Assembly (NCBI GenBank): GCA_037379345.1
Contig: CM074517.1
Coordinates: forward strand, 21,018,001-21,082,000
Direction of reading: 5' to 3'
Length of the DNA stretch: 64,000 bases
Origin: Perna viridis
Taxonomy: Eukaryota
Position 1 is the stretch's first letter, and each line of letters starts with the position of its first letter. Below are positions 17,001 through 62,000 of the stretch, piece after piece. The translations under genes were made by a program, and so were the position numbers. The notes below the pieces were generated by a model, which was not told where the DNA came from, searched no databases, and saw only the letters and a list, made by a program, of their open reading frames with translations.

Positions 17001-20000
17001 CAAAGACGTCAACTACTGTAGGAACTACCGTTACTGTCGGTATAGACACATCATCAACATCTGTTGGGACACAAACTACTTCTGTCGAAACGACTGGGTC
17101 TGTTGGCGAAACTCCAACTTCTACACCAGGAAGTACACAAACTATTGTGACAGAGACGTCAACCACTGCAGGAACAACCGAAACTGTTGGTACCGAGACA
17201 ACACCAACATCTGATCGCACACAAACTACTTCTGTCGTAACGTCTGCATCTGTTGGTACAACTGAAACATCTACTCCAGGAAGTACACAAACTGTTATGA
17301 CAGAGACATCAAGCACTGCAGGAACAACCGAAACTGTTGGTATCGAGACAACATCAACATCTGTTGGCACACAAACCTCTTCTTTCGAAACGTCTGCATC
17401 TGTTGGTACAACTGAAACATCTACTCCAGAAAGTACACAAACTGTTGTAACAAAGACGTCAACTACTGTAGGAACTACTGTTACTGTCGGTATAGACACA
17501 TCATCAACATCTGTTGGCACACAAACTACTTCTGTCGAAACGACTGGGTCTGTTGGTGAAACTCCAACATCTACCCCAGGAAGTACACAAACTATTGTGA
17601 CAGAGACGTCAACCACTGCAGGAACAACCGAAACTGTTGGTATTGACACAACATCAACATCTGTTGGCACACAGACTACTTCTGTCGTTACGTCTGCATC
17701 TGTTGGTACAACTGAAACATCTACACCAGGAAGTACACAAAGTGTCATGACAGAGACATCAACCACTGCAGGAACAACCGAAACTGTTGGTATTGACACA
17801 ACATCAACATCTGTTGGCACACAGACTACTTCTGTCGTAACGTCTGCATCTGTTGATACAACTCAAACTTCTACACCAGGAAGTATACAAACTATTGTGA
17901 CAGAGTCATCAACCACTGCGGAGACAACCGAAACTATTGGTGTCAAGACAACACCAACATCTGATCGCACACAAACTACGTCTGTCGTAACGTCTGCATC
18001 TGTTGGTACAACTGAAACATCTACTCCAGGAAGTACACAAACTGTTATGACAGAGACATCAAGCACTGCAGGAACAACCGAAACTGTTGGTATCGAGACA
18101 ACATCAACATCTGTTGGCACACAAACCTCTTCTTTCGAAACGTCTGCATCTGTTGGTACAACTGAAACATCTACTCCAGAAAGTACACAAACTGTTGTAA
18201 CAAAGACGTCAACTACTGTAGGAACTACCGTTACTGTCGGTATAGACACATCATCAACATCTGTTGGCACACAAACTACTTCTGTCGAAACGACTGGGTC
18301 TGTTGGTGAAACTCCAACATCTACCCCAGAAAGTACACAAACTGTTGTGACAGAGACGTCAACCACTGCAGGAAAAACCGAAACTGTTGGTATTGACACA
18401 ACATCAACATCTGTTGGCACACAGACTACTTCTATCGTAACGTCTGCATCTGTTGGTACAACTGAAACATCTACACCAGGAAGTACACAAACTGTCATGA
18501 CAGAGACATCAACCACTGCAGGAACAACCGAAACTGTTGGTATTGACACAACATCAACATCTGTTGGCACACAGACTACTTCTGTCGTAACGTCTGCATC
18601 TGTTGATAGAACTCAAACTTCTACACCAGGAAGTATACAAACTATTGTGACAGAGTCATCAACCACTGCGGAGACAACCGAAACTATTGGTGTCAAGACA
18701 ACACCAACATCTGATCGCACACAAACTACTTCTGTCGTAACGTCTGCATCTGTTGGTACAACTGAAACATCTACTCCAGGAAGTACACAAACTGTTATGA
18801 CAGAGACATCAACTACTGCAGGAACAACCGAAATTGTTGGTATCGAGACAACATCAACATCTGTTGGCACACAAACCTCTTCTTTCGAAACGTCTGCATC
18901 TGTTGGTACAACTGAAACATCTACTCCAGGAAGTACACAAACTGTTATGACAGAGACATCAACTACTGCAGGAACAACCGAAACTGTTGGTATCGAGACA
19001 ACATCAACATCTGTTGGCACACAAACCTCTTCTTTCGAAACGTCTGCATCTGTTGGTACAACTGAAACATCTACTCCAGGAAGTACACAAACTGTTGTAA
19101 CAAAGACGTCAACTACTGTAGGAACTACCGTTACTGTCGGTATAGACACATCATCAACATCTGTTGGCACACAAACTACTTCTGTCGAAACGACTGGGTC
19201 TGTTGGCGAAACTCCAACTTCTACACCAGGAAGTACACAAACTATTGTGACAGAGACGTCAACCACTGCAGGAACAACCGAAACTGTTGGTACCGAGACA
19301 ACACCAACATCTGATCGCACACAAACTACTTCTGTCGTAACGTCTGCATCTGTTGGTACAACTGAAACATCTACTCCAGGAAGTACACAAACTGTTATGA
19401 CAGAGACATCAACCACTGCAGGAACAACCGAAACTGTTGGTATCGAGACAACATCAACATCTGTTGGCACACAAACCTCTTCTTTCGAAACGTCTGCATC
19501 TGTTGGTACAACTGAAACATCTACACCAGGAAGTACACAAACTGTCATGACAGAGACATCAACCACTGCAGGAACAACCGAAACTGTTGGTATTGACAAA
19601 ACATCAACATCTGTTGGCACACAAACTACTTCTGTCGAAACGACTGGGTCTGTTGGCGAAACTCCAACTTCTACACCAGGAAGTACACAAACTATTGTGA
19701 CAGAGACGTCAACCACTGCAGGAACAACCGAAACTGTTGGTACCGAGACAACACCAACATCTGATCGCACACAAACTACTTCTGTCGTAACGTCTGCATC
19801 TGTTGGTACAACTGAAACATCTACTCCAGGAAGTACACAAACTGTTATGACAGAGACATCAACCACTGCAGGAACAACCGAAACTGTTGGTATCGAGACA
19901 ACATCAACATCTGTTGGCACACAAACCTCTTCTTTCGAAACGTCTGCATCTGTTGGTACAACTGAAACATCTACTCCAGAAAGTACACAAACTGTTGTAA

Positions 20001-23000
20001 CAAAGACGTCAACTACTGTAGGAACTACCGTTACTGTCGGTATAGACACATCATCAACATCTGTTGGCACACAAACTACTTCTGTCGAAACGACTGGGTC
20101 TGTTGGTGAAACTCCAACATCTACCCCAGAAAGTACACAAACTGTTGTGACAGAGACGTCAACCACTGCAGGAAAAACCGAAACTGTTGGTATTGACACA
20201 ACATCAACATCTGTTGGCACACAGACTACTTCTATCGTAACGTCTGCATCTGTTGGTACAACTGAAACATCTACACCAGGAAGTACACAAACTGTCATGA
20301 CAGAGACATCAACCACTGCAGGAACAACCGAAACTGTTGGTATTGACACAACATCAACATCTGTTGGCACACAGACTACTTCTGTCGTAACGTCTGCATC
20401 TGTTGATACAACTCAAACTTCTACACCAGGAAGTATACAAACTATTGTGACAGAGTCATCAACCACTGCGGAGACAACCGAAACTATTGGTGTCAAGACA
20501 ACACCAACATCTGATCGCACACAAACTACTTCTGTCGTAACGTCTGCATCTGTTGGTACAACTGAAACATCTACTCCAGGAAGTACACAAACTGTTATGA
20601 CAGAGACATCAACTACTGCAGGAACAACCGAAATTGTTGGTATCGAGACAACATCAACATCTGTTGGCACACAAACCTCTTCTTTCGAAACGTCTGCATC
20701 TGTTGGTACAACTGAAACATCTACTCCAGGAAGTACACAAACTGTCATGACAGAGACATCAACCACTGCAGGAACAACCGAAACTGTTGGTATCGAGACA
20801 ACATCAACATCTGTTGGCACACAAACCTCTTCTTTCGAAACGTCTGCATCTGTTGGTACAACTGAAACATCTACTCCAGGAAGTACACAAACTGTTGTAA
20901 CAAAGACGTCAACTACTGTAGGAACTACCGTTACTGTCGGTATAGACACATCATCAACATCTGTTGGCACACAAACTACTTCTGTCGAAACGACTGGGTC
21001 TGTTGGCGAAACTCCAACTTCTACACCAGGAAGTACACAAACTATTGTGACAGAGACGTCAACCACTGCAGGAACAACCGAAACTGTTGGTACCGAGACA
21101 ACACCAACATCTGATCGCACACAAACTACTTCTGTCGTAACGTCTGCATCTGTTGGTACAACTGAAACATCTACTCCAGGAAGTACACAAACTGTTATGA
21201 CAGAGACATCAACCACTGCAGGAACAACCGAAACTGTTGGTATCGAGACAACATCAACATCTGTTGGCACACAAACCTCTTCTTTCGAAACGTCTGCATC
21301 TGTTGGTACAACTGAAACATCTACACCAGGAAGTACACAAACTGTCATGACAGAGACATCAACCACTGCAGGAACAACCGAAACTGTTGGTATTGACAAA
21401 ACATCAACATCTGTTGGCACACAAACTACTTCTGTCGAAACGACTGGGTCTGTTGGCGAAACTCCAACTTCTACACCAGGAAGTACACAAACTATTGTGA
21501 CAGAGACGTCAACCACTGCAGGAACAACCGAAACTGTTGGTACCGAGACAACACCAACATCTGATCGCACACAAACTACTTCTGTCGTAACGTCTGCATC
21601 TGTTGGTACAACTGAAACATCTACTCCAGGAAGTACACAAACTGTTATGACAGAGACATCAACCACTGCAGGAACAACCGAAACTGTTGGTATCGAGACA
21701 ACATCAACATCTGTTGGCACACAAACCTCTTCTTTCGAAACGTCTGCATCTGTTGGTACAACTGAAACATCTACTCCAGAAAGTACACAAACTGTTGTAA
21801 CAAAGACGTCAACTACTGTAGGAACTACCGTTACTGTCGGTATAGACACATCATCAACATCTGTTGGCACACAAACTACTTCTGTCGAAACGACTGGGTC
21901 TGTTGGTGAAACTCCAACATCTACCCCAGAAAGTACACAAACTGTTGTGACAGAGACGTCAACCACTGCAGGAAAAACCGAAACTGTTGGTATTGACACA
22001 ACATCAACATCTGTTGGCACACAGACTACTTCTATCGTAACGTCTGCATCTGTTGGTACAACTGAAACATCTACACCAGGAAGTACACAAACTGTCATGA
22101 CAGAGACATCAACCACTGCAGGAACAACCGAAACTGTTGGTATTGACACAACATCAACATCTGTTGGCACACAGACTACTTCTGTCGTAACGTCTGCATC
22201 TGTTGATAGAACTCAAACTTCTACACCAGGAAGTATACAAACTATTGTGACAGAGTCATCAACCACTGCGGAGACAACCGAAACTATTGGTGTCAAGACA
22301 ACACCAACATCTGATCGCACACAAACTACTTCTGTCGTAACGTCTGCATCTGTTGGTACAACTGAAACATCTACTCCAGGAAGTACACAAACTGTTATGA
22401 CAGAGACATCAACTACTGCAGGAACAACCGAAATTGTTGGTATCGAGACAACATCAACATCTGTTGGCACACAAACCTCTTCTTTCGAAACGTCTGCATC
22501 TGTTGGTACAACTGAAACATCTACTCCAGGAAGTACACAAACTGTCATGACAGAGACATCAACCACTGCAGGAACAACCGAAACTGTTGGTATCGAGACA
22601 ACATCAACATCTGTTGGCACACAAACCTCTTCTTTCGAAACGTCTGCATCTGTTGGTACAACTGAAACATCTACTCCAGAAAGTACACAAACTGTTGTAA
22701 CAAAGACGTCAACTACTGTAGGAACTACCGTTACTGTCGGTATAGACACATCATCAACATCTGTTGGCACACAAACTACTTCTGTCGAAACGACTGGGTC
22801 TGTTGGCGAAACTCCAACTTCTACACCAGGAAGTACACAAACTATTGTGACAGAGACGTCAACCACTGCAGGAACAACCGAAACTGTTGGTACCGAGACA
22901 ACACCAACATCTGATCGCACACAAACTACTTCTGTCGTAACGTCTGCATCTGTTGGTACAACTGAAACATCTACTCCAGGAAGTACACAAACTGTTATGA

Positions 23001-26000
23001 CAGAGACATCAACCACTGCAGGAACAACCGAAACTGTTGGTATCGAGACAACATCAACATCTGTTGGCACACAAACCTCTTCTTTCGAAACGTCTGCATC
23101 TGTTGGTACAACTGAAACATCTACACCAGGAAGTACACAAACTGTCATGACAGAGACATCAACCACTGCAGGAACAACCGAAACTGTTGGTATTGACAAA
23201 ACATCAACATCTGTTGGCACACAAACTACTTCTGTCGAAACGACTGGGTCTGTTGGCGAAACTCCAACTTCTACACCAGGAAGTACACAAACTATTGTGA
23301 CAGAGACGTCAACCACTGCAGGAACAACCGAAACTGTTGGTACCGAGACAACACCAACATCTGATCGCACACAAACTACTTCTGTCGTAACGTCTGCATC
23401 TGTTGGTACAACTGAAACATCTACTCCAGGAAGTACACAAACTGTTATGACAGAGACATCAACCACTGCAGGAACAACCGAAACTGTTGGTATCGAGACA
23501 ACATCAACATCTGTTGGTACAACTGAAACATCTACACCAGGAAGTACACAAACTGTCATGACAGAGACATCAACCACTGCAGGAACAACCGAAACTGTTG
23601 GTATTGACAAAACATCAACATCTGTTGGCACACAAACTACTTCTGTCGAAACGACTGGGTCTGTTGGCGAAACTTCAACATCTACACCAGGAAGTACACA
23701 AACTATTGTGACAGAGACGTCAACCACTGCAGGAACAACCGAAACTGTTGGTACCGAGACAACATCCACATCTGATCGCACACAAACCACCTCTGTTGAT
23801 ACAATTGCATCTGTCGGTACAACTCTAACATCTACACCAGGAAGTACACAAACAGAAATGACAGAGATATCATACACTGCAAGAACAACAGAAACTGTTG
23901 GTATCGAAACAACATCAACATCTGATCGCACACAAACTACTTCTGTCATAACGTCTGCATCTGTTGGTACAACTGAAACATCTACTACAGGAAGTACACA
24001 AACTGTTATGACAGAGACATCAACCACTGCAGGAACAACCGAAACTGTTGGTATTGACACAACATCAACATCTGTTGGCACACAAACCTCTTCTGTCGAA
24101 ACGTCTGCATCTGTTGGTACAACTGAAACATCTACTCCAGGAAGTACACAAACTGTTGTGACAGAGACGTCAACTACTGTAGGAACTACCGTTACTGTCG
24201 GTATAGACACATCATCAACATCTGTTGGCACACAAACCACTTCTGTCGACACGACTGGGTCTGTTGGTGAAACTCCAACATCTACTCTAGGAAGTACACA
24301 AACTGTTGTGACAGAGACGTCAACCACTGCTGGAACAACCGAAACTGTTGGTATCGAAACATCAACATCCGTTGGCACACAAACTACTTCTGTCGTAACG
24401 TCTGCATCTGTTGGTACAACTGAAACATCTACTCCAGGAAGTACACAAACTGTTGTGACAGAGACATTAGCCACTGCAGGAACATCCGAAACTGTTGGTA
24501 TTGACACAACTTCAACATCTGTTGGCACACAAACCTCTTCTGTCGAAACGTCTGCATATGTTGGTACAACTGAAACATCTACACCAGGAAGTACACAAAC
24601 TATCGTGACAGAGACGTCAACCACTGCAGGAACAACCGAAACTGTTGGTATTAACACAAAATCAACATATATTGGCACACAAACTACTTCTGTCGAAACG
24701 TCTGCATCTGTTAGTACAACTCCAACATCTACACTAGGTAAAACAGAAACTATTGTGACAGAGACGTCAACCACTACAGGAACAACGGAAACTGTCATTG
24801 TTGACACAACATCAACAAATGTTGGTATAACTGAAACATCTATACCAGAAACAACAAAAACTGTTGTGACAGAGACATCACCCACTGCAGGAACAACCGA
24901 AACTGTTGGTATTAACACAAAATCAACATATATTGGCACACAAACTACTTCTGTCGAAACGTCTGCATCTGTTAGTACAACTCCAACATCTACACTAGGT
25001 AAAACAGAAACTATTGTGACAGAGACGTCAACCACTACAGGAACAACGGAAACTGTCATTGTTGACACAACATCAACAAATGTTGGTATAACTGAAACAT
25101 CTATACCAGAAACAACAAAAACTGTTGTGACAGAGACATCACCCACTGCAGGAACAACCGAAACTGTTGGTATTGACACATCAACATCTGTTGGCACACA
25201 AACCTCTTCTGTCGAAACGTCTGCATCTGTTGGTACAACTGAAACATCTACACCAAGAACAACTAAAACTGCTGTGACAGAGACATCAACCACTGCTGAA
25301 ACAACCGAAACTGTTGGTATCGAATTAACATCAACACCTGTTGGAACCCAATCAATTTCTGTCGAAACGTCTGCATCTGTTGGTACAACTCCAACATCTA
25401 TACCAGGGACTACAGAAACTTTTGTGACGGAGACGTCAGCCATTACAGGAACAACCGAAACTGTTGGCATCAAAACAACATCAACATCTGTTGGCACTCA
25501 GATCTCTACTGGAAGTACAGAAATTGTGACAAAGAGGACCACGGGTACAGAAACAACAACGGTAGCGGTCACTACTACAACGCAGGCTGTAATTACAACT
25601 GCTGAGCAAGCGACCACTACAACTTCAAAAATTACCACAGCGGTTGAATCCCTTTCAACATCTACGACAGCTACTTCTACTACAGCTGTACCAGTTTCTT
25701 CAATAGGTATGTATCGTGCATGTCGTTATGAATATGAAAAGGAATCTTGTTATTATTATTTGTAGAAAATAGCCATGCATCAATTGCTTTTGACTTTTCT
25801 ATTATGTGAGTATGTTTATCATGTTTTGTATAATTTGTGTTTGTTTGTTGGAAGTATATAAAATCAGTTCACTTTTCTCATAGATTGCGCAGTACAGCAC
25901 TAAACTTAATATGTTTTTGGTATTTTAGAGCTATTGGCATTTGGAGCGTCTGCAGGCGATAACGACGGTTCTTTGGGAGATGACGTTGAGGTTGCAAGTG

Positions 26001-44000: not shown

Positions 44001-47000
44001 ATTTTAATTTATCCTGAAGCGTCTGTGACATAGATAATTTTTTATGATTAATTAGGAAAAAAGTATGGGAAAATTTTCCCTCCATTTTTTCCTTGTGCAT
44101 TTCTACAATACTTGATGAATCAATATCTGAACAAAGCAAAGTTTGCAAACACTTTTATTGTTTTCTTTTGGGGTTATGAGGTTATTATATTTGGATAATG
44201 CAGTAAAATAACTGAATGCAAAATGACCTTTAAAATCTAACTATACCTCTTATGTTAAAGTTTGTATATATTTTAGGATTGTGCATTATATGTCTGAAGG
44301 TAAAATGGTGTTACTGCAGTTCTAAGTATTCAATAAAAAATGATGATGAGTTATAAATTAAAAGCTTAACTTTGTATGGACTGGTTACTCATATATCATG
44401 ATAACAAGCTTTGTCATAATTTTTTTTTCTTAATATTCAACACAAGGTTATTGTTAGGTTGATTTCCGTTCAGATTTATGTCATTCAGTATTAAGTCTTT
44501 CTGGACATTTTGATATTCTCACATTGAAGGTAGAAGGACTCCTCATGTGTGTCCTTTCCTCTTTTCATCCATCTAACGAGTTTTTTGTGCAACTACTTAT
44601 CACAGCCACTTGATATTTTGACAGAGGCTTTAAGGAGTTAAACCTAGGATAGGGGACATAATGATATGTTTGGTCCATATTCAACTTCACAAATGCCTAT
44701 CAAGCTTTCATTTGATGCAGAATGTAATCAGTCCAAGTTAATTTTATGCTTACATGAGATTGGTGTAAAATGCCAAATACAAATGTTCCAGTGACTTGTA
44801 AGAGTTGTGTCCCTTACCCTAGGTTTACCTGCTTAAATAGGTATGCCGTATCGTAGGAATTGATTACAGACTTGAGCCACATCAACTTCCTGTTTTATGA
44901 ATTTAAATACATATGTTTAGACCATATGATTTCGGGGGAGGGGATGGTTATTCTTTAGCTCACAGTTTTTTCTACGATTTTGTCTCTTTCTTAATTTTAA
45001 CAATGCCATCATATATTTTTTCTATGTTTTCAGCTGTAGAAAATGGTGATTTATTTTTTTAAAGCTAGACAATTTTAATTAAAATTATATTTCAGCTACA
45101 TAGAAAACATAGTCTCCTGCAATTTATTAAAAAGGGTTATTTCCCTTTTTCCCTGTTAGTTGTCTGAAAACTACCAATTGCATGACGTTCATTAGTTATA
45201 GTACATTATTAGATATTGAATGCACGTCGTGTATTGCCGTTTATAAATGTAAGCTACAGATTATGATAAGAATAATAAATAAGTGAACAATAATCACGTT
45301 TAAGTAGTAAAATGGAACTAGATACAAATAGAATAACAAATAAATGTATAAAAATAAAGAAAATGGGGCCCAAATTTTCTGCCTTACTTTTTGCCCCTGA
45401 CGTAAGGCCGAAAATTTGGGCCTCATTTTCTTTATTTTTATACATTTTCATTGTAATTTTATTTGTATTTTGTTCCATTTTATGTTTTTAAACGTGGCTT
45501 TTGTTCACTTATTTATTATAATTCAGCCACTTTACAACATATATTATTTTTATGCTACAGATGCATATGAACTCGTTGAATTATCAGCTGACTTACTGTA
45601 GTTATTTTTGGAGGCTCTTTTGTACCTCATGAATATTTGTGCAATTGTCCCAACAAATGGTCTAATATAACTGAGTTTTTATTGCTATTATTTGTAACAT
45701 ACTAAATCAAGTTAATGTTTAAATAGAACTTGTACTGATTGAGGTATGTATGATAACGTAACCATTACATATACGGAGGAAGATAACTAAAACTTTATAA
45801 TAAATAAAAATATGTAGGCTTTCCAGTCATGAATCACATTTTGCATGATTCTTATGTGGAGTGCTACTTAATTCTTTTATGTAAAACAAAGTCATGACAT
45901 TTATATTTACATGCTTTTTATAACTCATGCAGCATTCTAGGATTTGGGCTTTCTTCATTGAGAGGAAAGCAAAAATTAATGTACTTGTATATTAAAAGTA
46001 TCAGTACTGCAGGCATCTGACATGTTATACCCAGCGCTATCAGAAGTAGGTGCAAGGTAGCAATTTTCACCATCTACTTGACCAAATTTTGCATTGAAAT
46101 TTATGGAGGGGGAGCCATCTACTTTGGGAATTAAAGTTAACTATTCTAAGTCCTTCATACCATTTTACTATAATGACTGGTTATTACAGAATTAAGAAAG
46201 GTTATACTAATGGAAAAAATCTATTTATAGATCAATGGTATGCGCTAGATTATAAAGAATTCTCATGTGTTAGAATTGACAGGTTGTATAACCTGTTTAA
46301 ACAGATATACTACTATATAAACATTCTTGTTGTCCTTATTTATTGGGCTAGGTCTTAAGAACATCAAACTTAATTATAATATCAGTTTATTTCAGAAACA
46401 ATACATGTCCTAGTATTTTAATTTTTGTCTTTTTAAGTAGACCGATATTTTAGGAATGTTTGTATTAAAAAAATGGTCATGATTTGATTATTGAACTGAC
46501 AAGCTAATGTGAACTTATTCTTTAAAATGATCCTACAAAATCAGATAGAAATATGAGACTTTTAAGAAGATACATGTGGAATGAAAATATGTGTCTGTGT
46601 TTCTCTTGATTTTGATATTCAGTGTATAATTTGAGCTAAACATTGTATAAGAAAAAATGCAGATTTGTTGTTGTCCTCATTGGTCAAAAATAGTGTGAGG
46701 TATTGAGAGAACATGTGATAGCAGCAAATTCATATTATTATCATCTGGTTGAGTTTATCAATTGTGATAACAATTTTGTACTGTATTAAAAACAAACAAT
46801 ATTATATATGATAATCATTTAAGAGTTATGGCCCTTTTTCGCATAAAATAGTTGAAATTTTCTCTAAATTATCTTGTCTATTACCTATCATTTTTCTTTG
46901 TATTATTGTCCAATTAATATCACCACCTTAACACATTTTCAATATACATTTATACAGATGTTGATGAGTGTGTAGAAAGTACAAGTAACTGTGAACAGAT

Positions 47001-50000
47001 CTGTAACAATACGATGGGATCCTATAGCTGTGCTTGTAGGGATGGTTACATACTCAATGGTGATGGAATCACATGCTCTATTGGTATGTTATAAATACAA
47101 ACATGATTTTCTTCTGCTTTAAAGTGGGAATTGCTTTTCAAATCCAGGTTTTACTGCTTCTATTCTATTCTACTTCTAATTTTGCTAATTTCCAGCTTTG
47201 CAAAATCAGGTTTGTTGACAAGTAGTTAAGTGCATGGTGTCTTTTAAACATTTTTTATGAATCCTTAGCTCTCCTCTTGTTTCATATCATCAACTGTGAT
47301 TGATTGATTGATTATTGGGGTTTAACTCCCGAGCAGCAGTATCATCAACAGTGAAGACAGTAAGTTAAGCAGTATTATTCTGATACTTTCCTTAGATGAA
47401 AAAGGTAATGTTTATATTTTTGTTATCTCTGTACCAGAAAAAGTATTGAATTAAATTGAAGTAAGTAGGTTCTGAACAGTTAATCAAATGATTTTGCATA
47501 GACATTTTATTTTAAAGACTGTCTACTTTGAGTTTGCAATTTTCAGATTTACTATTTTTAAGTTACTTTAATTTTGTTTCATTTTTGATAAGAACCTGAT
47601 TGTTTTGTATCAACAGATCCTACATACAATACAACCCTGTGTAATGCAATCAACTGTGAGTTTGGATGTTCAGTGGAAAATAATGCTGCAAAATGTTTTT
47701 GTAAGACTGGTTACAATCTCAACAATGATGGTAGAACATGTACAGGTAAGTCACAATCTCAACTGTGAGTAAAATAAATGTACAGGTAAGTCACAAATTC
47801 AACAGTGAGTAAAATACATGTACAGGTAAGTCACAAACTCAACATTGACAAATAACTTAAACAGGTAAGTCACAAACTCAGCAGTGAGGAAAGGTCTTGT
47901 ACAGGTAAGTCAATCAGCAGTGAGAATAAGACTTGTACAGGTAAGTCACAAACTCAGCAGTGAGGAAAGGTCTTGTACAGGTAAGTCACTCAGCAGTGAG
48001 AATAAGACGTGTACAGGTAAGTCACAAACTCAGCAGTGAGGAAAGGTCTTGTACAGGTAAGTCACTCAGCAGTGAGAATAAGACTTGTACAGGTAAGTCA
48101 AAACATCAACAGTGATAATATGACTCATTAAGTCATTAACTTAACACTAAGAATTAGATTTGTACAGTTGGTCACAAACTCAATAGTGACTTAAAAACTC
48201 GTTCAGGTGAGGCAGAAATTGAAACACTGACAAAAGAACTTTAACATGTAACTTCTGTTGTAAAAGAAGTGGCCATTGTTCAGTTTTTAAATGAAGATAT
48301 TTTGTATTTATTAGTACTAACTTGGGCAAACAAATGAATTTCTCATTATCTCAAAATACTGATTTGGTAGGTTAAATAAATACATCCTTGAGACTTGTTA
48401 AGTTGTCTGTATGATGGTTGCCTTCCTTTTTTTAAACGGTGAATTATTTAATCAGCATGAATATTGATAAAAAGGCTCTGGTTGGTTTTAATTAGTGGAA
48501 TCGGGATTATATTTTTTGACAGATATCAACGAATGCTCAATCAGTAAGGCATTCTGTCCTCAGAAGTGTACCAACACAGAAGGAAGCTATAAATGTGGAT
48601 GTTATAAAGGATTCAAGATACTACCAGACCTAACATCTTGTGGAGGTTGTATTTTTTAAATTATTTTATTTTTGGTTTTTCCAGAAATCAAATAGAAGTT
48701 GGTAAGACAATAACTTGGTCTGTTTGGTCACATTTATAAAGATTACAGTGTAATTATTCACTGTAATGAGATCTAGCCTCCCATTATCTCTATGAGGATT
48801 AAACCAAAATGCATTAAATAAGCAGTTTACATTTAGAAGCTTTTCTTGTATGTACAAATGTACCAGATTCTTCCATATATATTTTTGTTTGCTTCCCTTA
48901 TATGGGACTGGAAACATAGTTAAGTGACATCAAATTTTCTCTTGCCTTTGTTTTTAATATGTCTATGAGGCTGCCACTTTTTGGACGTTTTATTGGTTAA
49001 GAGAACGAAATAAGATGGGCTGACCTGACCTCGTCTTACACAGGTCTTCTCAGCTTACAAAAGGTCATTTCCAGAAGATAATCAACATTAATCAATTGGT
49101 AATTAATTCATTTGAAGACCGAGTGGTGTACAATTAATCTGTTTTTGATAGTCAGTAAAATTCATACAAAACTATAAAACAAAATTAAGAAATATATATA
49201 CAAGTTGTCTTCCCTGTCAGAAGCTATCACCTACCGTTCATGCTTCTCTTTTTCATTTAATTGGCCACACAGTTTTTATGATTTTGCATTGAATTAGTAT
49301 GACATCTTTCCCACAACAGTCTAAGAATAAGAATATGCAGTGTGTCAAATGGTTACTTTCTAGGAATAGAGCTAGTCTTCCCATGATTGACTGTCCATTA
49401 CTTTAGGTAGTTAACTGGATAATTGACAAGAAGATCTAAACTTTCTCTTTTTCCATAGGTATTTTAATCTGATGAGTCTGACAGAAAGTTTAAATCTCTT
49501 CGTCAAGTGTCTAGTAAACTATCGAAGACATTTCATCAGGTAATGGTCATGATCATTTATTCAAGGGAAGACAACTCTATTCCCTGAAGTTAACTATATT
49601 ATCTGTAATCTTAAAAGTGCAAAATGTCTTTCTATGATTCTTATAGGAAACTGTAAAGAGATTATACTTTTATCTTTTAGAATGTGATTCCAGTCACTAT
49701 GGTGATGATTGCAAGATGAAGTGCAGTGCATGCTCCCCATATACAACAAAGTGTGACAGGGTCAAAGGTTGTATCTGTTCCTCAGGATGGACTGGTACCT
49801 TGTGTACTGAGGATATCAATGAATGTGCTCAGGAGGGTATATGTGGAACTCTTGAGGATTGTGAAAATTCTTTTGGATCTTACGAGTGTGTCTGTAAGGA
49901 GGGTTATGAAAGGGCAGCTGATGGAACATGTATAGGTATACACTATATGTTAAATGGATTTCCTGTATAGATTAAATATCACAACCATTTTCATTTTCCT

Positions 50001-53000
50001 CATCTGAAACATGTTTTATACTTAAACAGAAAATAATTTGTACATACTTTGACATGCAACTTTTTTTATCCATGTTCAATTGAATTTATAAAGTAAATTT
50101 AGATTTATATAGATTTGTATACAGACAATAACAGTGCACTGATACGACATAAAACTGATATATGGATGAGGCTTTAAACTGTGGTAAAATGCGAGGCTGT
50201 GTGATTCAGGGACAGTGTATCACTTATTTAAATATACAGTCAGTGCATTTTGACTGCTCAAATTGAACAGTTGCAGTATGAATAAGATTACCTTTCTGCT
50301 TCCTCATTTTTTAATAATCGTGAAATCCTGTTTATAGATATCAATGAGTGTACAATTGGTCAGTTCAACTGTAGTAACAATGCTGAGTGTGTCAACACTG
50401 TAGGGAGTTACCTATGTACCTGTAAGGAGGGATTTAATGGAGATGGTGTCAATTGTACTGGTAAGTAATAAAAGAAAGGTAACTCTTGTGTCAAGGTATA
50501 GGGATTTTCCTGTGTACCTATATGGAGAGATTTAGGGACGATGGTGTCACTTGTACAGGTAAGTAATAAAAGAAAAGTAGCTCATGTGTCAAGGAATATG
50601 GAGTTACCTGTGTACATGTATGGAGAGATTTAGGGACGATGGTGTCAATTGTACAGGTAAGTAATAAAAGAAAAGTAGCTCTTGTGTCAAGGTAAAGGGA
50701 GTTACCTGTGTACCTGTATGGAGAGATTTAGTAGCAATTTTATGGTGTCAAGTGGGAGGGAGGTCAGAAATAAAAGGGAGATAACTTCAGTGTGTCAATT
50801 TTGTAGAATGTTACCTGTGAGAAGGAATATAAGGGGATTAACATCAGTTTGGTAGTAAGGTCAGGAGGAATCTTGCTTTTGTGCCAATTTTATTTGTGCT
50901 ACAAGGTTGTACTTCATTTGCATGAAAGACTGATTATTTGAGATGGACATGATTCAATATAAGACAGTGAAAATTAATCTGTAATATCTGATGGCCTTGG
51001 GTATAGATTGTTAGTTGTTTTGAAAAATGGTTTATTCTAAAGGTGTAAAAAACTTGCAAAGCCAGAATAACAACAGATGTAGTTGGCATGACTGTTGTTA
51101 AAACTCTGAATAAAACACCATCATGGTTTGGACATGCAGAAAACAGGATCTGAACAACTATACATTAGAGTTAGAAAAGTGTGTTTAGTACGGGTAACAG
51201 ATCTTGCTTGTGAAAAGAAGAGGTACAAGTAAAATAATTAAAATTAGTACTATATTGTATTAAATTCACCATTAATTGTGGAATAATTCATGATTGATGC
51301 AAATTAAATATGGTTTGTGGTGGAAATGAGATTTTTTTGGCAAAAGCAATGTGTCTAGATCAGGAAAAAACTGAAGTTTACTCCAAATATTTTTTTCAGA
51401 TTCTATTCAAGAGCTTTGGTGGACTGATTCGATTTGTCTCTTTATTTTTAGTTCTTCGTTCACTATTTGTATAATTGATACATATGGAGAAAACATGGAT
51501 AACCATTAATTATAGATGAACTGCTATAAAAGATTTAACAAAATTTAGAATTAATTGGTACTAAAAAGAAGTAATAGATAAAGCTGGAACCCTATTGCTA
51601 TTCTATAGATGGGTAAAAGGTAAAATAGGATTTTGTGAATCTTCAGATCCAATTTTACAGAGGAGAACATGACACACTTTCACATACATTAAAGTTGTAT
51701 TTAGTTTGTCAAATGGTATTGTTGTACATAGGTATGGTTTGATTTCAGATATTGATGAGTGCTTCTTAAAGACAGACGACTGTCAACATACATGTGTTAA
51801 TATGGTGGGCAGCTTCAATTGTCTTTGTAATATAGGATTTCAACTGAATGCTGACAGAAAAACATGCTTTAAGATACAAGATCAAAAGGGTAAATACTTT
51901 AAAAATGCTTCATTGAAAATTTACATCTGGCTTCATTGTGAGTTAAAGACTTATATTTATGAGGGGAAATTTGGACAAATCAATTCTAGACTTAATGATG
52001 CACAATTTGATCCAATTTATAAACTGAAAGTCCTGATTAATTTAGTTTTCAAGACAGTAGTTACAGTGTACAAATTAGACAAACTTTACATATAAAAATT
52101 GTACAGTTCGTAACTGATAGGAGTACCTGTTTTGTTCAATGCCTAACTCGTATCATTAGAAATAATTTCAATTATTACTACAGTTTAAATATGATGTTTT
52201 GCCATTAAAGCTTTTTTTGTTACCTTGCAGTTGAAGACAGGTGCAGTGCCTTAGATTGTGACAAAATTAATGGTGGATGTTCTCTCAATGCAACAGAGGA
52301 TGCGTTCTGTTTTTGTAACTCAGGGTTTGAGTTTGTCGACCCTAGTAATTTTACCTGCACAGGTAATGTCATATAGCTGTTATTCGAATTTGGGAAATTG
52401 TGAAATATACATTTTTTTTAGGACTCTGGGATGAATGTAAAAGAAGAATTCTTTCTTATTTATATATATATATATATATATTGGAAACAAAGTAATTAAC
52501 ACACAATTTAGTAATTTTTTTTTCAGCATTATATGTTTAGATGATTCTTTTTTTTACACAAAATGGTGTTTAATTACAGTTAGTCTCTTGAACATAAAAT
52601 GTTTAAAAAATTATAATATTTTGTGTAGTTATTGTTGTTGATATACATTAATGTAGCTATGTTGGTGTGTATATTTTTGTAGATATTGATGAATGTAGCA
52701 ATAACAATGGAAATTGTGACCATATCTGTACTGATAATACGGGAGGCTTCACCTGTTCGTGTAGTACTGGGTATAAACTCATATCAGATGGAAAGTCATG
52801 TGAACGTAAGTTTAAACTACAAGTTTCTATAAACATTTATTGTTTATATTGCCTGTGAAGAAAGTGGGCCCTACTATTTTTCTGTCACAATCAATAAATT
52901 ACAAATCTTAACCTTAGAATTACATTGCATTTTGTGTAATATGAACAAAAGATGAGTTGCCAACATCTAGGATCTGTGATGTTAGGAGCTAATACTATAA

Positions 53001-56000
53001 CTCTTTATCTGGTCATCTGTTAAAATTACCAATTTTTTTATGGATCTTTTTGATATAATTTCAGCCTGTAATACTACAAACCGATGGGGTGCTAACTGTG
53101 CCGAGGCATGTGATTGTGGTATAGGGAGTGAGTACTGTGATACCCTGACTGGATGTGTCTGTAAACCTGGCTACAATGGGACATATTGTACTGTGGACAT
53201 AGATGAATGTCTTAACTCACCATGTCCTAACAATCAGACATGTGCCAACACAGGTGGTTCATACACATGTACATGTTCACAGGGGTATGAGATACAGAAT
53301 GATATCTGTGTTGGTAAGTGTTGAATTAGTAGTATTCCAACTAATCATAGCCCCATGTGAAAAATAGGTGGTTTATAGTGATCATTCTGTCCATTCCTCT
53401 GTTTCCAGTTCTGATCTGCACCTCCTCTCAAACTACTGAATGGAATTTGATGAAACTTTAACACATTCTGTATCATATGGTGCCATTGTGTACTTCCAAT
53501 TTTGCTTTTCCATGTGATTGACTTTCGGTTTTTCTAGATGGTTTCTAGGGAGTGGAGTTTTTTTTGTTTTTAAATGATTTCATAGTAATTTTGTGTAGGT
53601 TATTGATTAAAATTTTATATATTGAATGTAGTCTTCTCAGAATTGATCATTTAAAAGTTAAGACAAAAAAATTGATTTTACAGAAATACCAAAAAATAAC
53701 AAATAAAGAAAACAAACAAAGAGTAAACAAACATTGAATAAAAAAAATAAGGAGTAAATTCTTTTGATGCAGTTTACCATATTTATTTCCTTAGATACGG
53801 ATGAGTGCACTAAAGATACTGATACCTGTGACCAGAGATGTGTCAACAAAGTGGGAGGTTATCTATGTACATGTGAGGATGGCTTTGTACTCAATGGTAC
53901 TGATACATGTTTAAGTAAGTCTGAATTCCTTAAGTATTAATTAGATAGAAGGACACTATATACAGAACTAATTGAATATTTATGTTTGTATTTAAATGAA
54001 GGGTTTTTGACTCTCTTTTTCTGACTGATCTTTTATTGACATTGTCCATGGTAATAATGTGGTAGTGTCTTTTTCAATTTGTATTTTGTTTTCTGTTGAT
54101 GCATTGTGATTTTATCTGTTTTAAAGAATTTAAATATGCAAAAAAAGAGACCTGGGTTTTCTTTTTTAATATTTATTTCTAAAATCTGATTTTCCTCCAT
54201 TTTAAAGCATAATTCTGCTTTTTCAAATCCAGATTTTACTGTTATGATTCTTTTTTTAATGTATATTTACTACTCTGATTTTGCCAATTCTGGTTTGTTA
54301 TGTTGACCTCGTAAAATCAGGTCTGATATCTATCAAATTTTAAACTTGTATTGTAACTTATCATGGTTAATTTATAGTAAAAATCATGTCAATATGTAAA
54401 AATGTTCAGAAAAAAAATGTCAGGAAAACGGTTATTTCTGTGAATTTTGATAAGTACAAAGCCCGTAATTTCGGTAAAATTTATCAAAAAGTAAACTTGA
54501 CTTTTAACTTATCATGGTGAACTTATTAATCAAAAAAATATTTCAATATCTGCAAGTGTCTGGAAAACTTAAGATGGACTGACGGTCAGACGGACGGGTC
54601 AAACACATTATACCCTGCGAAACTGCATTGCGTGTGGTATAATTATTTAAGCTCACAGTTCTTCTGCTTTGAAATTAAGAGAACACATATTCCATAACAG
54701 ATGTAAAAGATTAGTACTGGTACTGGAGTTACGCACAATCAGGTGATAAAGGGCAAGTAATTCTTTACATTTACGACATACTGTGAGGTGAAATATTGTA
54801 TGAAATCAGTCTTTAACTTAAGCCAAAATTGTGTATGTCATTTGACCATAAGGTCAAAGGTCATGTTCAAAAGTCACACATATTGGTACATGACACTTAA
54901 CCTTAGCGTGAAATACCCACATACCAAATGTCAGGTATCTTAGTAAACAGGCAAAAAAGTTATGGCACAGGCAAAACTTTGGGGGGTATTTTGCCAAAAT
55001 GTGTATCTTATTTGACCATGAGGTTGACAGGTTAAGGTCTGTTTGTTTGTTTGTTGGGGTTTAGCAATATTTCAGCTATATTCAGATGATGAACATGAAA
55101 TGATGATGAAATGAAAAAAGGATGGGACACAAGGATAATAGGGTCGACAAATTTTGATTGCCACTAGAAAAAGGGGGGATGGGTAAGGTTGGGCAATTTA
55201 GCCTCCTGTGGCAGAGTGCAAAGGTTCCTACTCCTATCGAATACCACAGCAGGGTTCTTTAACGTGGGAGGAACATGACATCTTTCCCAACACGGTGCAC
55301 CACTATGGTTTGCGGTCAGGTTTTCCATATTATAGCCTGACAACCCAAGCATGTAACATACCAGGGGTACCCCATTCCACCATCCTAGTATGTGATGCCT
55401 GGCCTTCAGGTTTTATAACCCCATACCAAATATCAGATGTCTTAGTGAAAAGACAAAACTATTTTAGCCCAGACAAAATTTTGTATGGTATTTGGCCAAA
55501 ATTTTGTATGTCATTTGACCTTGGAGTCAAAGGTCAAGGTCAAAAGTTATCCTATCTTGAACATTACACTATACCTTAATGTGATTTACTTACATACCAA
55601 AAATCAGATATCTTGATAAAAAGACAAAAAACAGTATGGCCAAAGACAAAGTTTTTTATGGTATTTTGCCAAAACTTTTTTGTTATTTGTTCTTGGGGCC
55701 AAAGGTCAAGGTCAAAGGTCACCTACTTAAAACATTACTCCTTGCCTTGGTGTGATATACTTAAATGTCAAAGATCAGATATTTAAGTAAAAAGACCAAA
55801 AAATAATAGTACAGACAAAATTACATATCATATTTTGCCAAAATTTGTATGTTATTTGACCTTGAGGTGAAAGGTCTAGGTCAAAAGTCTCCCACTCTGG
55901 TATGCGACAATCTACCCTGAGAGGATATACCAACATACCAAATATTAGAAGTCTAGGTCAAAAGACAAAAAAGCTATGGTCTGGACAAAGTTTGTATGAA

Positions 56001-59000
56001 AAACATTAAGAAGAAGAAAAGTCCTTACAGGGGGTGATTTTGGGTCCAGATGAGCAAAAAAAGATATGCTACATATTTTTATTTTTGATATGTTTTAGTG
56101 GAGAGCACCTACTACACACTCTTGTTAGCAAAACGGGTCTGAACATAACCTTTTTTTCGTACATTTCAAATTGTCAAAAATTAAGAATTTTGGTTACTAT
56201 GGTAACCAGATCTAAACAAATCAGATTGCTTTGTACTTTATTGTAAATTGTTTCTCCTAAAATATACTTTATTAATATAATTATGTAGTTTGACAAATTT
56301 CCACCATTAAATATAAAATAATACATTCAAATTGCGATGTTTTTGTGTTTTTAGGCCCAAAATTGGGGGTTGCTAAGGAATGGTCATTGCTATGGTTACG
56401 GTGGAAACATTTTTCATTTTTTTATATTAATTTTTGTTTTTTCCATTAAATCCTACATATTGCAACTCAATTTGGTTCAAATGTCTGACATCGATAAATC
56501 ACCCACTGCATGATTCTTAGGTGGACTACTACTTAAAAAGAGAAAGACTTGGTCATTATCAGTTTTTTCATTCCCAAAAATGTTGTTATCTTTGAAAAAA
56601 ACTGATAAACTGACAATAAATGAACTAATAATTTGTAAAGCTTTATAAAGGTTTTTTGATAGAACGAATTTGAAATTATTGAAGATAAGTTATAAACATT
56701 TTAGGTTGCTACTTGGACATTAGAATATTTGAATTATGATTATTTAGATATTGACGAGTGTAGTTTGTTGAACAATGACTGTGAGCAAGAGTGTACTGAC
56801 ACCAGAGGGAGCTTCTACTGTAGCTGTAGAGATGGTTTTGTATTAAACTCTGACCAGTCATCGTGCAGCAAAGGTTAGCCATTGATATTTCATATTATAC
56901 CATCCTGTATACACAGTAAATTTATATCACTTGTGTACTACCATGAAAGTTATATTTTATATATTAAGTAAGTTTCATATTATTTAATTCCCCCATATAT
57001 TTTTCTTACTTAGTTTTTCATTTGCGCTGGATTGTTTATATCAGTTATGTGACATTGAGACAAGCGTTGAAAATTGAGAACTGGCATATCATATGCTTTA
57101 TGAAGGCATGTTTAATTAAAAAATACTTACGCTTAAATGGAAAAATCTGAATGTAATGCCAACAGTTGTTTTCTTTTACTCTTCAATAATGCCAACTTAA
57201 TCTATTTATAACTTTTTATCTATTTTAGCTGATAATCCATGTGCAGGGCAAAATATCAACTGTGGCTATGGATGTGAAATGATAAACAATGTCCCACAGT
57301 GCTTCTGTGCACAGAATTATGATCTCAGTTCAGAAGACAATCAAACTTGTCGTAGTAAGTACACTGAGAAGGATTTTTTACTTTTAAGCAGAATTCCATT
57401 TTTTCACAGATTTCATTGTATGAGTCCTTTTTTATCATAAGTTATTTAGGCAAAAAAAAACAATACTCTTGTTTCCTGCTACCAGCAATAAAAAAGATAC
57501 ATAGGTGAGAAAATTATTTTATTTTTTCAAAAATTTTTTACTTTGAGTAAATGAAGAAACAAACAAGACTTCAAGAGAGTTCGAGTCAACATGGCCATAA
57601 AATGTTTAGGGCTGGCACAAAAAACTAGGGTAGGTAAGGTAGCAAGAAACAGACATATTATTTTGTTTGCCCTTGCTGCAATCTCCAACTTTTTTTGGCC
57701 TTGTAAAATCATGTCAGAGATTGTAACCATAAGAAAATAAAACATAAAACAAAACATAAAATCTAATTCTTCAACAATGTAAGTTTTCTGCTTAACACAT
57801 ATAGATGGCCAAAGAAAAAAACTGGAATATTAATTCTAATAATCAACGCATTTCAAACCAGTAAAATTTTAACCTAGAAAAATAAATTGGTAACCTTATC
57901 AATAAAGATATCCATCTTAGTCATCTCTACAGAAACTTATTTGGAGATGTTGTTTTTTTTTCACAGTTTATAAACTGACTTATCAATGTTCATATATTTT
58001 TCCCAATTTCAGTTGTATATAACTGGGTAGATGTGACTTTAACAACAGACTATCCTTATAACAGTAATCTATCTGTAGAGACTTCAGATCTGTTCAAACA
58101 TTCCAGAGTTGATATAGCACCTTCAGTAAGTAGCCAGGGTTGATATATCACATGGTGGATATATCACCTTCTGTTAGTAGCCAGGGTTGATATATCACAT
58201 GGTGGGTATATCACCTTCAGTAAGTAGCCAGAGTTGATATATAACCTTCAGTAAGTAGCCAGGGTTGATATATCACCTTCAATTAGTAGTCAGGATTGAT
58301 ATATCACCTTTAGTACTTAAGTAGCCAGGGTTGATAAATCACCTTCAGTAAGTAGCATGGGTTGATAAATCACCTTCAGTAAGTAGTCAGAAAATAATGT
58401 ATCATAATATACAGGAAACATAAAGTTAAAAAAATTAAGCATTTATATTTCAACAATGAATTAAAATTATATTGTTAAGTTTGGTGATTGATGCCTTTCA
58501 CATAAGGGTGCAGCAGTTGTATTTAGACCTATACACAATATATAGAGGTCAGTCCAGAAAACTTAACAATCTTACAGTTTTAAGTGAAAGACAAATTTTC
58601 CTGCAATTTATTAAAGATCATTTCATATGTTTGTCTCATTTTATTTCTATTATATTTTAGATATACTTAGAAAATTGGCAATACACAGTGATGATAAAAG
58701 TAGTTCACTTAATTAGAAGCATGATCTATTAAATAGCTCGAACATGTGCTTAATAGACTTGTGAAACATTATGTGTATATTTTAATTATATAGACAGTAT
58801 AGTGTAATTACTCTTAATTACACACACACACCATTGTTTACCTCATCTTTAATGGTGAGGTGAATATTGTATGTTTATTTAGACGTAGTGAATTTGATAT
58901 TTTATTTTACAGCTACATAGTGCCTATAAGAGTGTAACAGACTTCCTTTCGTTAACTATCCATAAATTCAGGTAAACTAATGAAACGATTCTTTCTTTGT

Positions 59001-62000
59001 AAACAATATGGTCATATATTAAAATACACCACTTTTTGCTCCTTTTTTTCATACTTTTTAATGCTAGAATTGACAAAAGTAAAGGTCAAATTTTAGGCCG
59101 GTTATTTTAATAGAACTCAGTAGGGCTCAAAATTGAATTTACAGTTACAAGTTAAGATTTTTAAAGCCAAAGGCCCATTCAGTTAAAGTCATATGTCCTT
59201 TATTGAGCAGTTGTTTTGAAGATTCAGGTTATGATAATAGTCTGTAAGATTCCCGTGAACTTGTTTTTCTTCCCTTGTCCATGAAAATTGATATCCACAA
59301 ATTAAAGTGCTTTAACATTTTATGTTACTTATATGTTACTGTTTAGTCTTTCAACAATTAAAAATTTTGAATATATGTCTTTTTAGTTCTGGTAGTACTC
59401 AAATACAGTTCACCATTGTCCTAAATAATAACCTTACTGAGAGCACTATAAAGGAAATAGCCAACATGACGAACAACATCAAGCAGATTGTGGCTTTAGA
59501 GATACCATATAATGTTATTGACAAAAAATCTTTCCTTAGCTATCAAAATATTCAATTAAGTAAGTATAAGAATATCTATTTTGCATGGATTGAAGAAAAA
59601 GAATTTCTGTGCTTTACAACTTTAAAACTTGTTGGAAAATACGTAGAATGAAAAATTAGTCTGATAGAAACAATGCTCAATTTTTTTTTTTTTTTGATGT
59701 TTGAGCATGCTGAAAGCATTTCTCTTCAACATGTATATTTATAATCATCTCTTTCTTAATTTGATGGCATTTTTCATGTTATTAATTTCAGTACCATTGA
59801 CCTGTGCGTTATGTGATGGTACTTGTGTATTACTCTCCGATGCTAGCTATGAATGTAGACCTCCACTGGGTAAGTCTATTAAAACATATAAATTCACAAA
59901 CTCACAATGATGTGAAGTATATATTCTAATGAGAGATTTTCCACCTTTTTACATTTGGTAAATTTTCTACAGATTTCAAGGGAGAAACTGATTTTCCTTC
60001 GGCCTATTTTTTATTTTTACTTTTCTCCATTTTTGATGATAAAAAGTAAGTTTATAAGCATGCTCCCGAAGCTGGCATGTCGAATTTTTTTATTTTACCA
60101 TCTTGCATGGAGAAATAATTTAAATCGCTAATCACTGAAGAAGAATCTATTTGTAAATTGTATATACATGTTTTTACTTGATCATCTTTTTTTAGTTATT
60201 TCTCCAAAATTAATGCAATATTCTTTTTTTCTGCTTTTTCAGCTCAAGTTGAGAACCAGTCGTTGTTTATTAGAATCACACTTAAAAAGAATTTCCAAAG
60301 TTTTTATACCAATAAACTTCATTCAGATTACATAGCTTTTGAAGATGATGTAGAAAAAGCTGTAAGTTTAAACTTAGTAATATAATTCATCAATACAAAG
60401 TAAAAGCTTCAATCAACTAACTCAGGGCTGTTCCAGTAAAACATACATGGGACCCGGGGATGGCATTTAAAAAAAAATATATATTGGTTGTGGGTTGGTG
60501 GAAAATGCATCTATGGCACGGTACTAGGCTTGGAAATTCGCTTCTGTGAGTTGTTGTTGGGAAAATGAAGGAACTTTCTGTTGAAAGCTGTATTTTACTT
60601 TCTCGAAATGGTCCAAAATGAATCCCTGTCATTGTATAAACCTTTAGTATAGTTGAGTTATTCGCTTTTGTTGTGGGAAGTTCGCGCCATTTTTACAGGG
60701 TGTTCCACCCGGAAATCGCCTTGTATTTGGTTTGACATTATTCTCCCCTTATTTTCGGGGTTTTGCTGTGGAGCAATGGTGCGACCCGAGACACCAGAAC
60801 ATCAGAAAAGATGTCAACTTCCGTCGTTTGTTGATGTGGTTCACAAGTGTTCCTCGTCTCTGGATTTTTATGTAGATTAGACCGTTGTTTTTCTGTGTTG
60901 AAGATTGTACTTAGACTTATTATTGTGGTTTATACTTAAATAAATTGTGACTTGGATGGAGAGTTGTCTGATTGGCACTCATACCACATCTTCTTATATC
61001 TATTCAGTGTGTCTGAATTATCATCAAAGCAACTCTTCCACAATTAAACTTTTTTTGAAACTGAATTTGAACAGTTGTTAAATCACTATGTAATCATTGC
61101 ATATTGATATCAGGAATAACCCATTCCAAAACTTCAAAATGAAAGGGTATGGGCTATGGAGTGAATGTGTAGGTGACAAAAACACCAAATTATCAAAGAA
61201 CAGGGCTTTTACTTCTGTTCTTCATCTTAGAAATTGTCAGAGAGTCTACACTAATGGACAAAATTTCCATACCCTTAAACAAGATACCCCCCCCCCCCAG
61301 TGTGCAAATGAGCAGAATTGTCCATATTGATAAACATCAATATTACTTTATACTCTCTTGTGCCTCACCTGCACAGAGTGCATGCAAACTTGAGTGATGC
61401 TTACAGCAGATTTCCAGCTGAAAGTGCTAGGTATACAAGAAGGGAAGTTTTCTTGAAATCACTGATCCCCAATTAAACAAATGGATTTTAGGAAAACTTC
61501 ACACAACTATCAAGGCAATCATATGGATGAACACAGAAATTTCAACTGGTTAGATGAGATACAAAATAGTTCATGGTAATACACCAGCTTCATATACAGT
61601 CACTGTTGTACAGTGTGGATCAATAAAACTTCTGCATTATCATCTATTTCTCTTCACATACCAAATATTATTGACCTGTGATATAAAGTGGTTGTTGAAA
61701 ATTTCCTATGGACAAACACTCTTACAATTGTGAATACCAGAAAGGTAATCCCTATATTCTGGCCTTCTTCGAATTTGCTCTTAGGCAAGACAAAAATCAA
61801 GATTTAGCTATGCATTGAAAAGAGGATATGTGTACATAAAAATGAATGTTAATACGTGAAATGATTTTAATGTACAGATATATGAATGCACAATAGGTAA
61901 AAGCATTTGTCTATACATGAATATATGCAACATGCAAGAAGTAGGCAAAACAGCAAATATATATGTTTTTTAATCCGTGTCTTAGCTAGGCAAAATGGAG

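Follow-up and report, generated by a model that had tools for sequence, protein, structure and literature searches.

In Perna viridis, a coding exon of a putative MUC4-like gene is followed by a tandem array in which the tail of the exon and its 5' splice site (donor) are repeated head to tail. Splicing uses the first donor in the RNA examined, the arrays of two tandem paralogs of the gene hold unequal numbers of units, and a higher-order dimer is confined to the copy described here. We consider this array to be, with high probability, an exon-boundary ('mirage') minisatellite. A single duplication guided by microhomology likely founded it, and unequal exchange or slippage likely enlarged it; with the first donor used in the transcripts examined, it is likely near-neutral. 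Unless stated otherwise, coordinates are those of the window, that is, the whole 64,000-nt stretch of DNA analysed.

Ten exact ACAG/GTAAGTCA cores (ACAGGTAAGTCA; the slash marks the cut) lie at 47742–48100, with donor-to-donor spacings of 40, 40, 39, 40, 36, 40, 36, 40 and 36 nt. With at most one mismatch, ACAGGTAAGTCA occurs 12 times in the window against 0.66 expected by chance, and none of 100 shuffles reached 12. TRF described the array both as period 40 (9.8 copies) and as period 76 (4.4 copies). The sequence-only reading had reported ten stacked donors, this spacing and a (40 + 36) dimer, all of which were found exactly, the dimer in three copies. By alignment, the array resolves into 13 head-to-tail units of minisatellite size (u1–u13), and it is arranged with its surroundings as follows:

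47617–47745, + strand: EGF-like coding exon, 129 nt, phase 1-1, from whose last 34–36 nt the repeat unit derives (RNA junctions; Pfam FXa_inhibition/cEGF; alignment)
47742–47753, + strand: authentic 5' splice site, cut at 47745/47746, the sole donor among the RNA joints listed (three raw reads in X21; spliced contigs in X12 and X15)
47746–48522: intron holding the array (RNA junctions)
47746–47864, + strand: proximal diverged units u1–u3 (40, 40 and 39 nt), with an intact pseudo-donor at each end (alignment)
47766–47768, + strand: TGA in the reading frame of the exon (translation)
47865–48092, + strand: higher-order dimer (40-nt A unit plus 36-nt B unit) in three copies, young and confined to this gene copy (TRF, alignment, paralog comparison)
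48093–48247, + strand: distal degenerate units u10–u13, whose donor cores are broken; the paralog also has u12 and u13 (alignment)
48523–48645, + strand: next exon, EGF-like, spliced to the first donor (RNA junction)
50401–50731, + strand: second donor-spanning array of the same gene, 98 bp in 3.4 copies (8.4 in the paralog), first donor used (TRF, RNA)
58111–58390, + strand: third donor-spanning array of the same gene, 31/47-bp units with six further donor-like copies, first donor used (TRF, RNA)

The first unit spans the authentic exon-intron boundary defined by RNA. The repeat unit comprises about 34–36 nt of EGF-exon tail and 4–6 nt of intron head, which carries the donor, and the alignment of the exon tail with the unit extends over 36 of 40 positions. 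The earlier proposal that the exon end is echoed by the intron units is borne out by this alignment, which places the origin of the array in a duplication of exon tail and donor. A GT-ACAA microhomology is found between the exon from position -36 onward and the intron head, and a single duplication guided by it across the donor probably founded the array. Inner units are homogenised and border units divergent: the three 40-nt A units show no differences, the three 36-nt B units differ by one or two bases, and border units differ by up to 16. The identity of the A units fits homogenisation by unequal exchange, and the array as a whole probably grew by unequal exchange or slippage, unequal exchange also homogenising it in part. 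The array is also longer than its ten donors, with u10–u13 adding four sites whose cores are broken (TCAT/TAAG, ACAG/TTGG, TCAG/GTGAG and ACAT/GTAAC). The splice-signal core had been called invariant; since the array runs on past the ten donors, this description stands for the ten exact cores and fails for the other four of the 14 sites.

To follow donor use, RNA was mapped to 46800–59100 from one raw-read run (X21, about a fifth of which was read) and three contig sets presumed to be RNA (X12, X13 and X15), with X13 covering the exons barely at all. The junction 47745/48523 was present in three reads of X21 and in spliced contigs of X12 (depth 131) and X15 (depth 60). The RNA contigs show zero mismatches to the exon of this copy, and we therefore assign them to this paralog. 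Counting junctions per donor, as the sequence-only reading had suggested, assigned every RNA joint listed to the first donor; no downstream-donor junction was seen among the 15 joints listed (beside 40 weaker ones) in this RNA, which is shallow and blind to decayed transcripts. In the bin 47622–48032, where the exon end is followed by the first seven units, mean depth equals the exon-alone value (38.1 in X12 and 17.5 in X15), and X21 had no depth in 48033–48443. Splicing at the authentic site is thus undisturbed in the RNA examined, which is shallow enough for low-level use of other donors to be possible. The first donor is likewise the one used at the second and third arrays of the gene. RNA joins the first donor of the array to an old acceptor, 48522/48523, which is common to the paralog, and no new intron was formed. 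The array would be tolerated because its copies fall inside the intron whenever the exon-proximal donor wins.

Read-through past the first donor meets the TGA at the seventh codon after the junction codon. Because this stop precedes all nine downstream donors, each of them would include it; donors 47905 and 47941 keep the frame yet lie behind the stop. The earlier statement that downstream donor use adds a TGA seven codons past the junction codon holds for all nine. Rare use of a downstream donor would accordingly yield a premature stop and, most likely, a transcript removed by nonsense-mediated decay.

A tandem paralog of the whole gene lies about 104–113 kb downstream (G000:C7, about 21.13–21.19 Mb; L008–L014), with introns 80–93% identical to those described here. 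Its array, about 112 kb away, has five units against 13 and lacks the dimer; among the five are an A-like unit with four differences, a B-like unit that is shortened, and the equivalents of u12 and u13. The first and last units match between the two arrays. Two of the six paralog cores are exact and four are altered. Distal units shared by the two paralogs are identical at 71 of 80 positions, no better kept than plain intron (102 of 110), and the exon is identical at 125 of 129. Since the paralog has the same array, with u12 and u13 counterparts and without a dimer, the array probably predates the gene duplication and the dimer would have been amplified later in this copy. The sequence-only reading had taken the dimer to be a secondary amplification, and its absence from a paralog with single A-like and B-like units agrees with this. 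The dimer would then be a late addition. An assembly artefact could in principle produce three identical A units, and the exact number of dimers does rest on the assembly; the units are nevertheless diverged and ordered, and the homologous array of the paralog agrees in its first and last units, making such an artefact most improbable.

The sequence-only reading proposed that the donor core may be under constraint, and offered conversion as the other possible cause of its uniformity. Per-position conservation of the aligned units confirmed that the core at this locus has diverged less than the spacers (p about 0.001–0.004). Among u1–u9, there are no changes in the 12 core columns against 20 in the other 28 (p = 0.001 for a fixed window, 0.02 for the best window); among all 13 units, there are six changes in the core against 36 elsewhere (p = 0.004 and 0.09, respectively), and in the paralog, five against 23 (p = 0.06). 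This array also ranks top among its own 9-base windows. A matched test, which set the core against those other 9-base windows within each array that satisfied the same selection, gave a mean rank of 0.56 for the donor 9-mer across 17 arrays (p = 0.49). Substitutions were also counted class-wide in donor arrays, of which 32 of 35 were alignable. With the three selecting copies dropped, they numbered 133/1832 in the core and 531/6966 elsewhere (control arrays, 0.097 versus 0.069); with all copies kept, the rates were 0.049 and 0.074 (control arrays, 0.074 versus 0.065), and these latter figures leave room for a mild class-wide core effect. Constraint on the donor core as a rule is unsupported, since the core is not better kept across the 17 arrays under matched selection, and as the reason for the uniform core here it is likewise unsupported, four of the 14 sites being broken and four of the six paralog cores altered. 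We read the local conservation as the extreme end of a large class, chosen for its striking look, and leave some probability for a cause at this locus, whether mechanical or selective. The ten intact cores would then reflect recent amplification together with the singling out of one extreme array from many.

A neutral array could also keep its core uniform mechanically, if exchanges or conversions start in the longest identical stretch, including the selected authentic donor. This account departs from the minisatellite explanation solely in the cause of the uniform core, and it draws on the local conservation, which is real, and on the likeness of u1 to the exon, which is strongest beside the donor. 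The same mechanism should act in other arrays, yet the effect is not seen across the 17 tested, and border units u10–u13 have lost the core; we regard a mechanical cause as possible but rather doubtful. Selection for the extra donors, through several U1 particles that strengthen exon definition or guard against early polyadenylation, or through a reserve of spare donors, would explain the lower divergence of the core relative to the spacers and the exact identity of the nine downstream sites to the authentic donor over -3..+8. Pseudo-sites in human F7 do work once the first is mutated (PMC1557585). With five units and mostly altered cores in the paralog, no core conservation across the 17 arrays, 11 of the 14 donors of the gene without copies and a premature stop awaiting any spare donor here, this selection is improbable. 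The stop could itself be the function, such that a downstream donor adds the TGA as a regulated poison switch that tunes mRNA by decay or gives a truncated secreted mucin, at a rate set by copy number. Every downstream donor does include the TGA, and the nearest pseudo-sites of human IFI6 and CBS are used as well (PMC1557585). An early in-frame stop is, however, expected by chance in AT-rich read-through sequence, which counts against such a switch. Neither a downstream junction among the joints listed nor excess array depth was seen in the three exon-covering RNA sets, although products lost to decay would be missed in steady-state RNA. We judge a poison switch to be improbable as well, and retain the likely near-neutral exon-boundary minisatellite.

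The host encodes a predicted MUC4-like mucin/EGF-repeat protein, with long Ser/Thr-rich repeat exons, an AMOP exon, a C8-3_MUC4 exon and many EGF exons by Pfam. The gene is named from these domains only, because homolog and PDB sequence searches found nothing: a search with one AMOP exon returned no homolog among 33 candidates, and the PDB sequence search for the gene was likewise empty. Donor arrays sit on three of its 14 RNA-confirmed donors, and all three are also in the paralog with other copy numbers. Very long Ser/Thr-rich repeats occupy 3525–14041 and 15950–25494 of the window (a 414-bp repeat in 25 copies and a 150-bp repeat in 50), and about 22 kb of Thr/Glu/Ala repeats lie upstream of the window (L018–L020), the repeat set of the paralog being different. 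Just past the window, at about 65517–65650 in window numbering (L004), is a 31-bp minisatellite with donor-like CAG/GTAGTG, also present in the paralog; it was rejected as a fourth donor-anchored array, having no exon upstream.

The arrangement is a known one and likely harmless. Mirage minisatellites have been described in amphioxus Adh3, troponin C, the globins BflGb6 and BflGb9, and PGBD5, and the array matches the available portions of these descriptions on every feature tested (PMC3087553, PMC3902484). It differs from them in its host, Perna viridis, in its secondary 76-bp dimer and in a unit that is almost wholly exon-derived; genome-wide counts, given below, are absent from the portions available of the amphioxus accounts (PMC3087553, PMC3902484). 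In intron 7 of human F7, the first unit of a 37-bp VNTR spans the donor, identical pseudo-donors follow and the most upstream site alone is used, as here; its alleles hold five to nine copies, and its unit has four exon and 33 intron bases, a share that is reversed in our array (PMC1557585). IFI6 (6-16), CBS intron 13, LMNB2 and PDGF are similar to F7 (PMC1557585). In the Rogers model, introns are gained by tandem duplication of AG/GT-containing sequence, with internal tandem repeats observed in human paralogs (PMC2812944). Our tandem units likewise begin with GT and end with AG at an exon-intron boundary and vary between recent paralogs; unlike in that model, no new intron or exon has formed, and the existing acceptor, common to the paralog, lies 275 bases beyond the array (PMC2812944). 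A literature search that left most subscription papers outside showed no mollusc in which boundary-spanning minisatellites had been counted genome-wide, and the parts available of PMC10078293 and PMC13321193 hold nothing on boundary-spanning repeats. As a single array the case is ordinary, and any weight may lie in the class, at exon edges of many unrelated genes. Boundary-spanning arrays can mislead gene prediction and read mapping.

Repeats of the same kind occur in dozens of other genes of the genome, as judged mostly by eye. Three exact CAGGTAAGT sites 29–59 bp apart gave 103 matches genome-wide, forming at least 36 places among the 100 matches listed; the reversed motif gave 37, in 13 places (Fisher p = 0.002, with this one control motif), and single-site counts are alike (6131 and 5865). 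For triples of AAGGTAAGT, 72 matches in 21 places compare with 40 for the control. We examined 35 of the CAGGTAAGT places among the matches listed, one segmental duplicate being omitted, and all 21 AAGGTAAGT places. By eye, 29 of the 35 and 15 of the 21 arrays (44 of 56 together) begin at an exon end, and the units of different arrays are mutually unlike. A Pfam match lies directly upstream of 14 of the 56, where 28 of 34 and 19 of 20 open frames were scanned, alternative frames dropped and unscanned frames counted as misses. As a baseline, of 51 single sites sampled at the beginning of contig 1, 17–25 resemble real donors by eye and four have a Pfam match (32 of 35 frames scanned), and none of the exon-like sites sampled was duplicated. 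The odds ratio for arrays at real donors is then 3.8–7.3 by eye and 3.9 by Pfam (p = 0.02), and under this strict definition roughly 1–1.5% of real donors would carry arrays. Exon-anchored units are 39% GC, control units 40% and bulk DNA 33%, and base composition may account for part of the enrichment at exon edges.

Several repeats of other kinds were noted in these searches. A dispersed family with perfect CAG/GTAAGT (L135, L138, L142, L144, L155) supplied six of the 51 sampled single sites, large donor-motif arrays of about 27–57 copies reach up to 3 kb (L117, L130, L123, L116), and a 742-bp tandem repeat at G000:C1, about 0.248–0.250 Mb (L088), contains short exon-like pieces with both splice signals.

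An enrichment limited to donors was first suggested by TTTACAGAT arrays, which occupy 15 places among 21,381 sites, the motif being a true acceptor in none. This idea was dropped because acceptors seem to be affected as well: TWWTTTCAG triples gave 250 matches against 224 for the control (140,280 single sites), and of at least 29 places among the 100 matches listed, nine of 29 end at an exon start by eye, four of them with Pfam. Copies in these exon-start arrays keep the AG. The acceptor odds ratio falls from 11 to 2.5 on the assumption that 4–15% of single sites are real acceptors. In donor arrays anchored by hand, the intron share of the unit is at most 15 nt in 22 of 29 CAG arrays (28–39% expected) but in 6 of 15 AAG arrays; an automated test, whose walker stopped early in diverged arrays including this one, was not significant (p = 0.15). 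Because of the AAG replicate and the automated result, a skew of breakpoints toward donor units ending just past the GT is unproven.

The remaining lead is this apparent enrichment of minisatellites at exon edges. We advance only tentatively, and with more doubt than conviction, that exon edges are birthplaces of minisatellites and not merely sites where they are tolerated, with arrays about 4–7 times over-represented at real donors, probably also at real acceptors, when compared with other occurrences of the motif, and donor units tending to end a few bases past the GT. If true, this would suggest a germ-line mutational process linked to chromatin at exons, to transcription or to the binding of the spliceosome, and roughly a thousand natural tests of the choice among identical splice sites would become available. 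With annotation and deep RNA, first-donor/last-acceptor choice could be tested genome-wide in an invertebrate through this class, as could a higher rate of mutation to tandem repeats at exon edges.

A search with TTTTCAGAT was set aside, as it was swamped by a dispersed 33-bp satellite; the family containing TTTTCAGAT lies at many unlinked places and is possibly carried by a mobile element. In the single case of L100 (G000:C4, about 1.213 Mb), an acceptor-spanning array precedes an EGF exon, and its upstream copies are without the AG of the apparent true acceptor. At L219 (G000:C5, about 1.736 Mb), one exon with a Pfam FeS_assembly_P match has arrays over both its acceptor and its donor.
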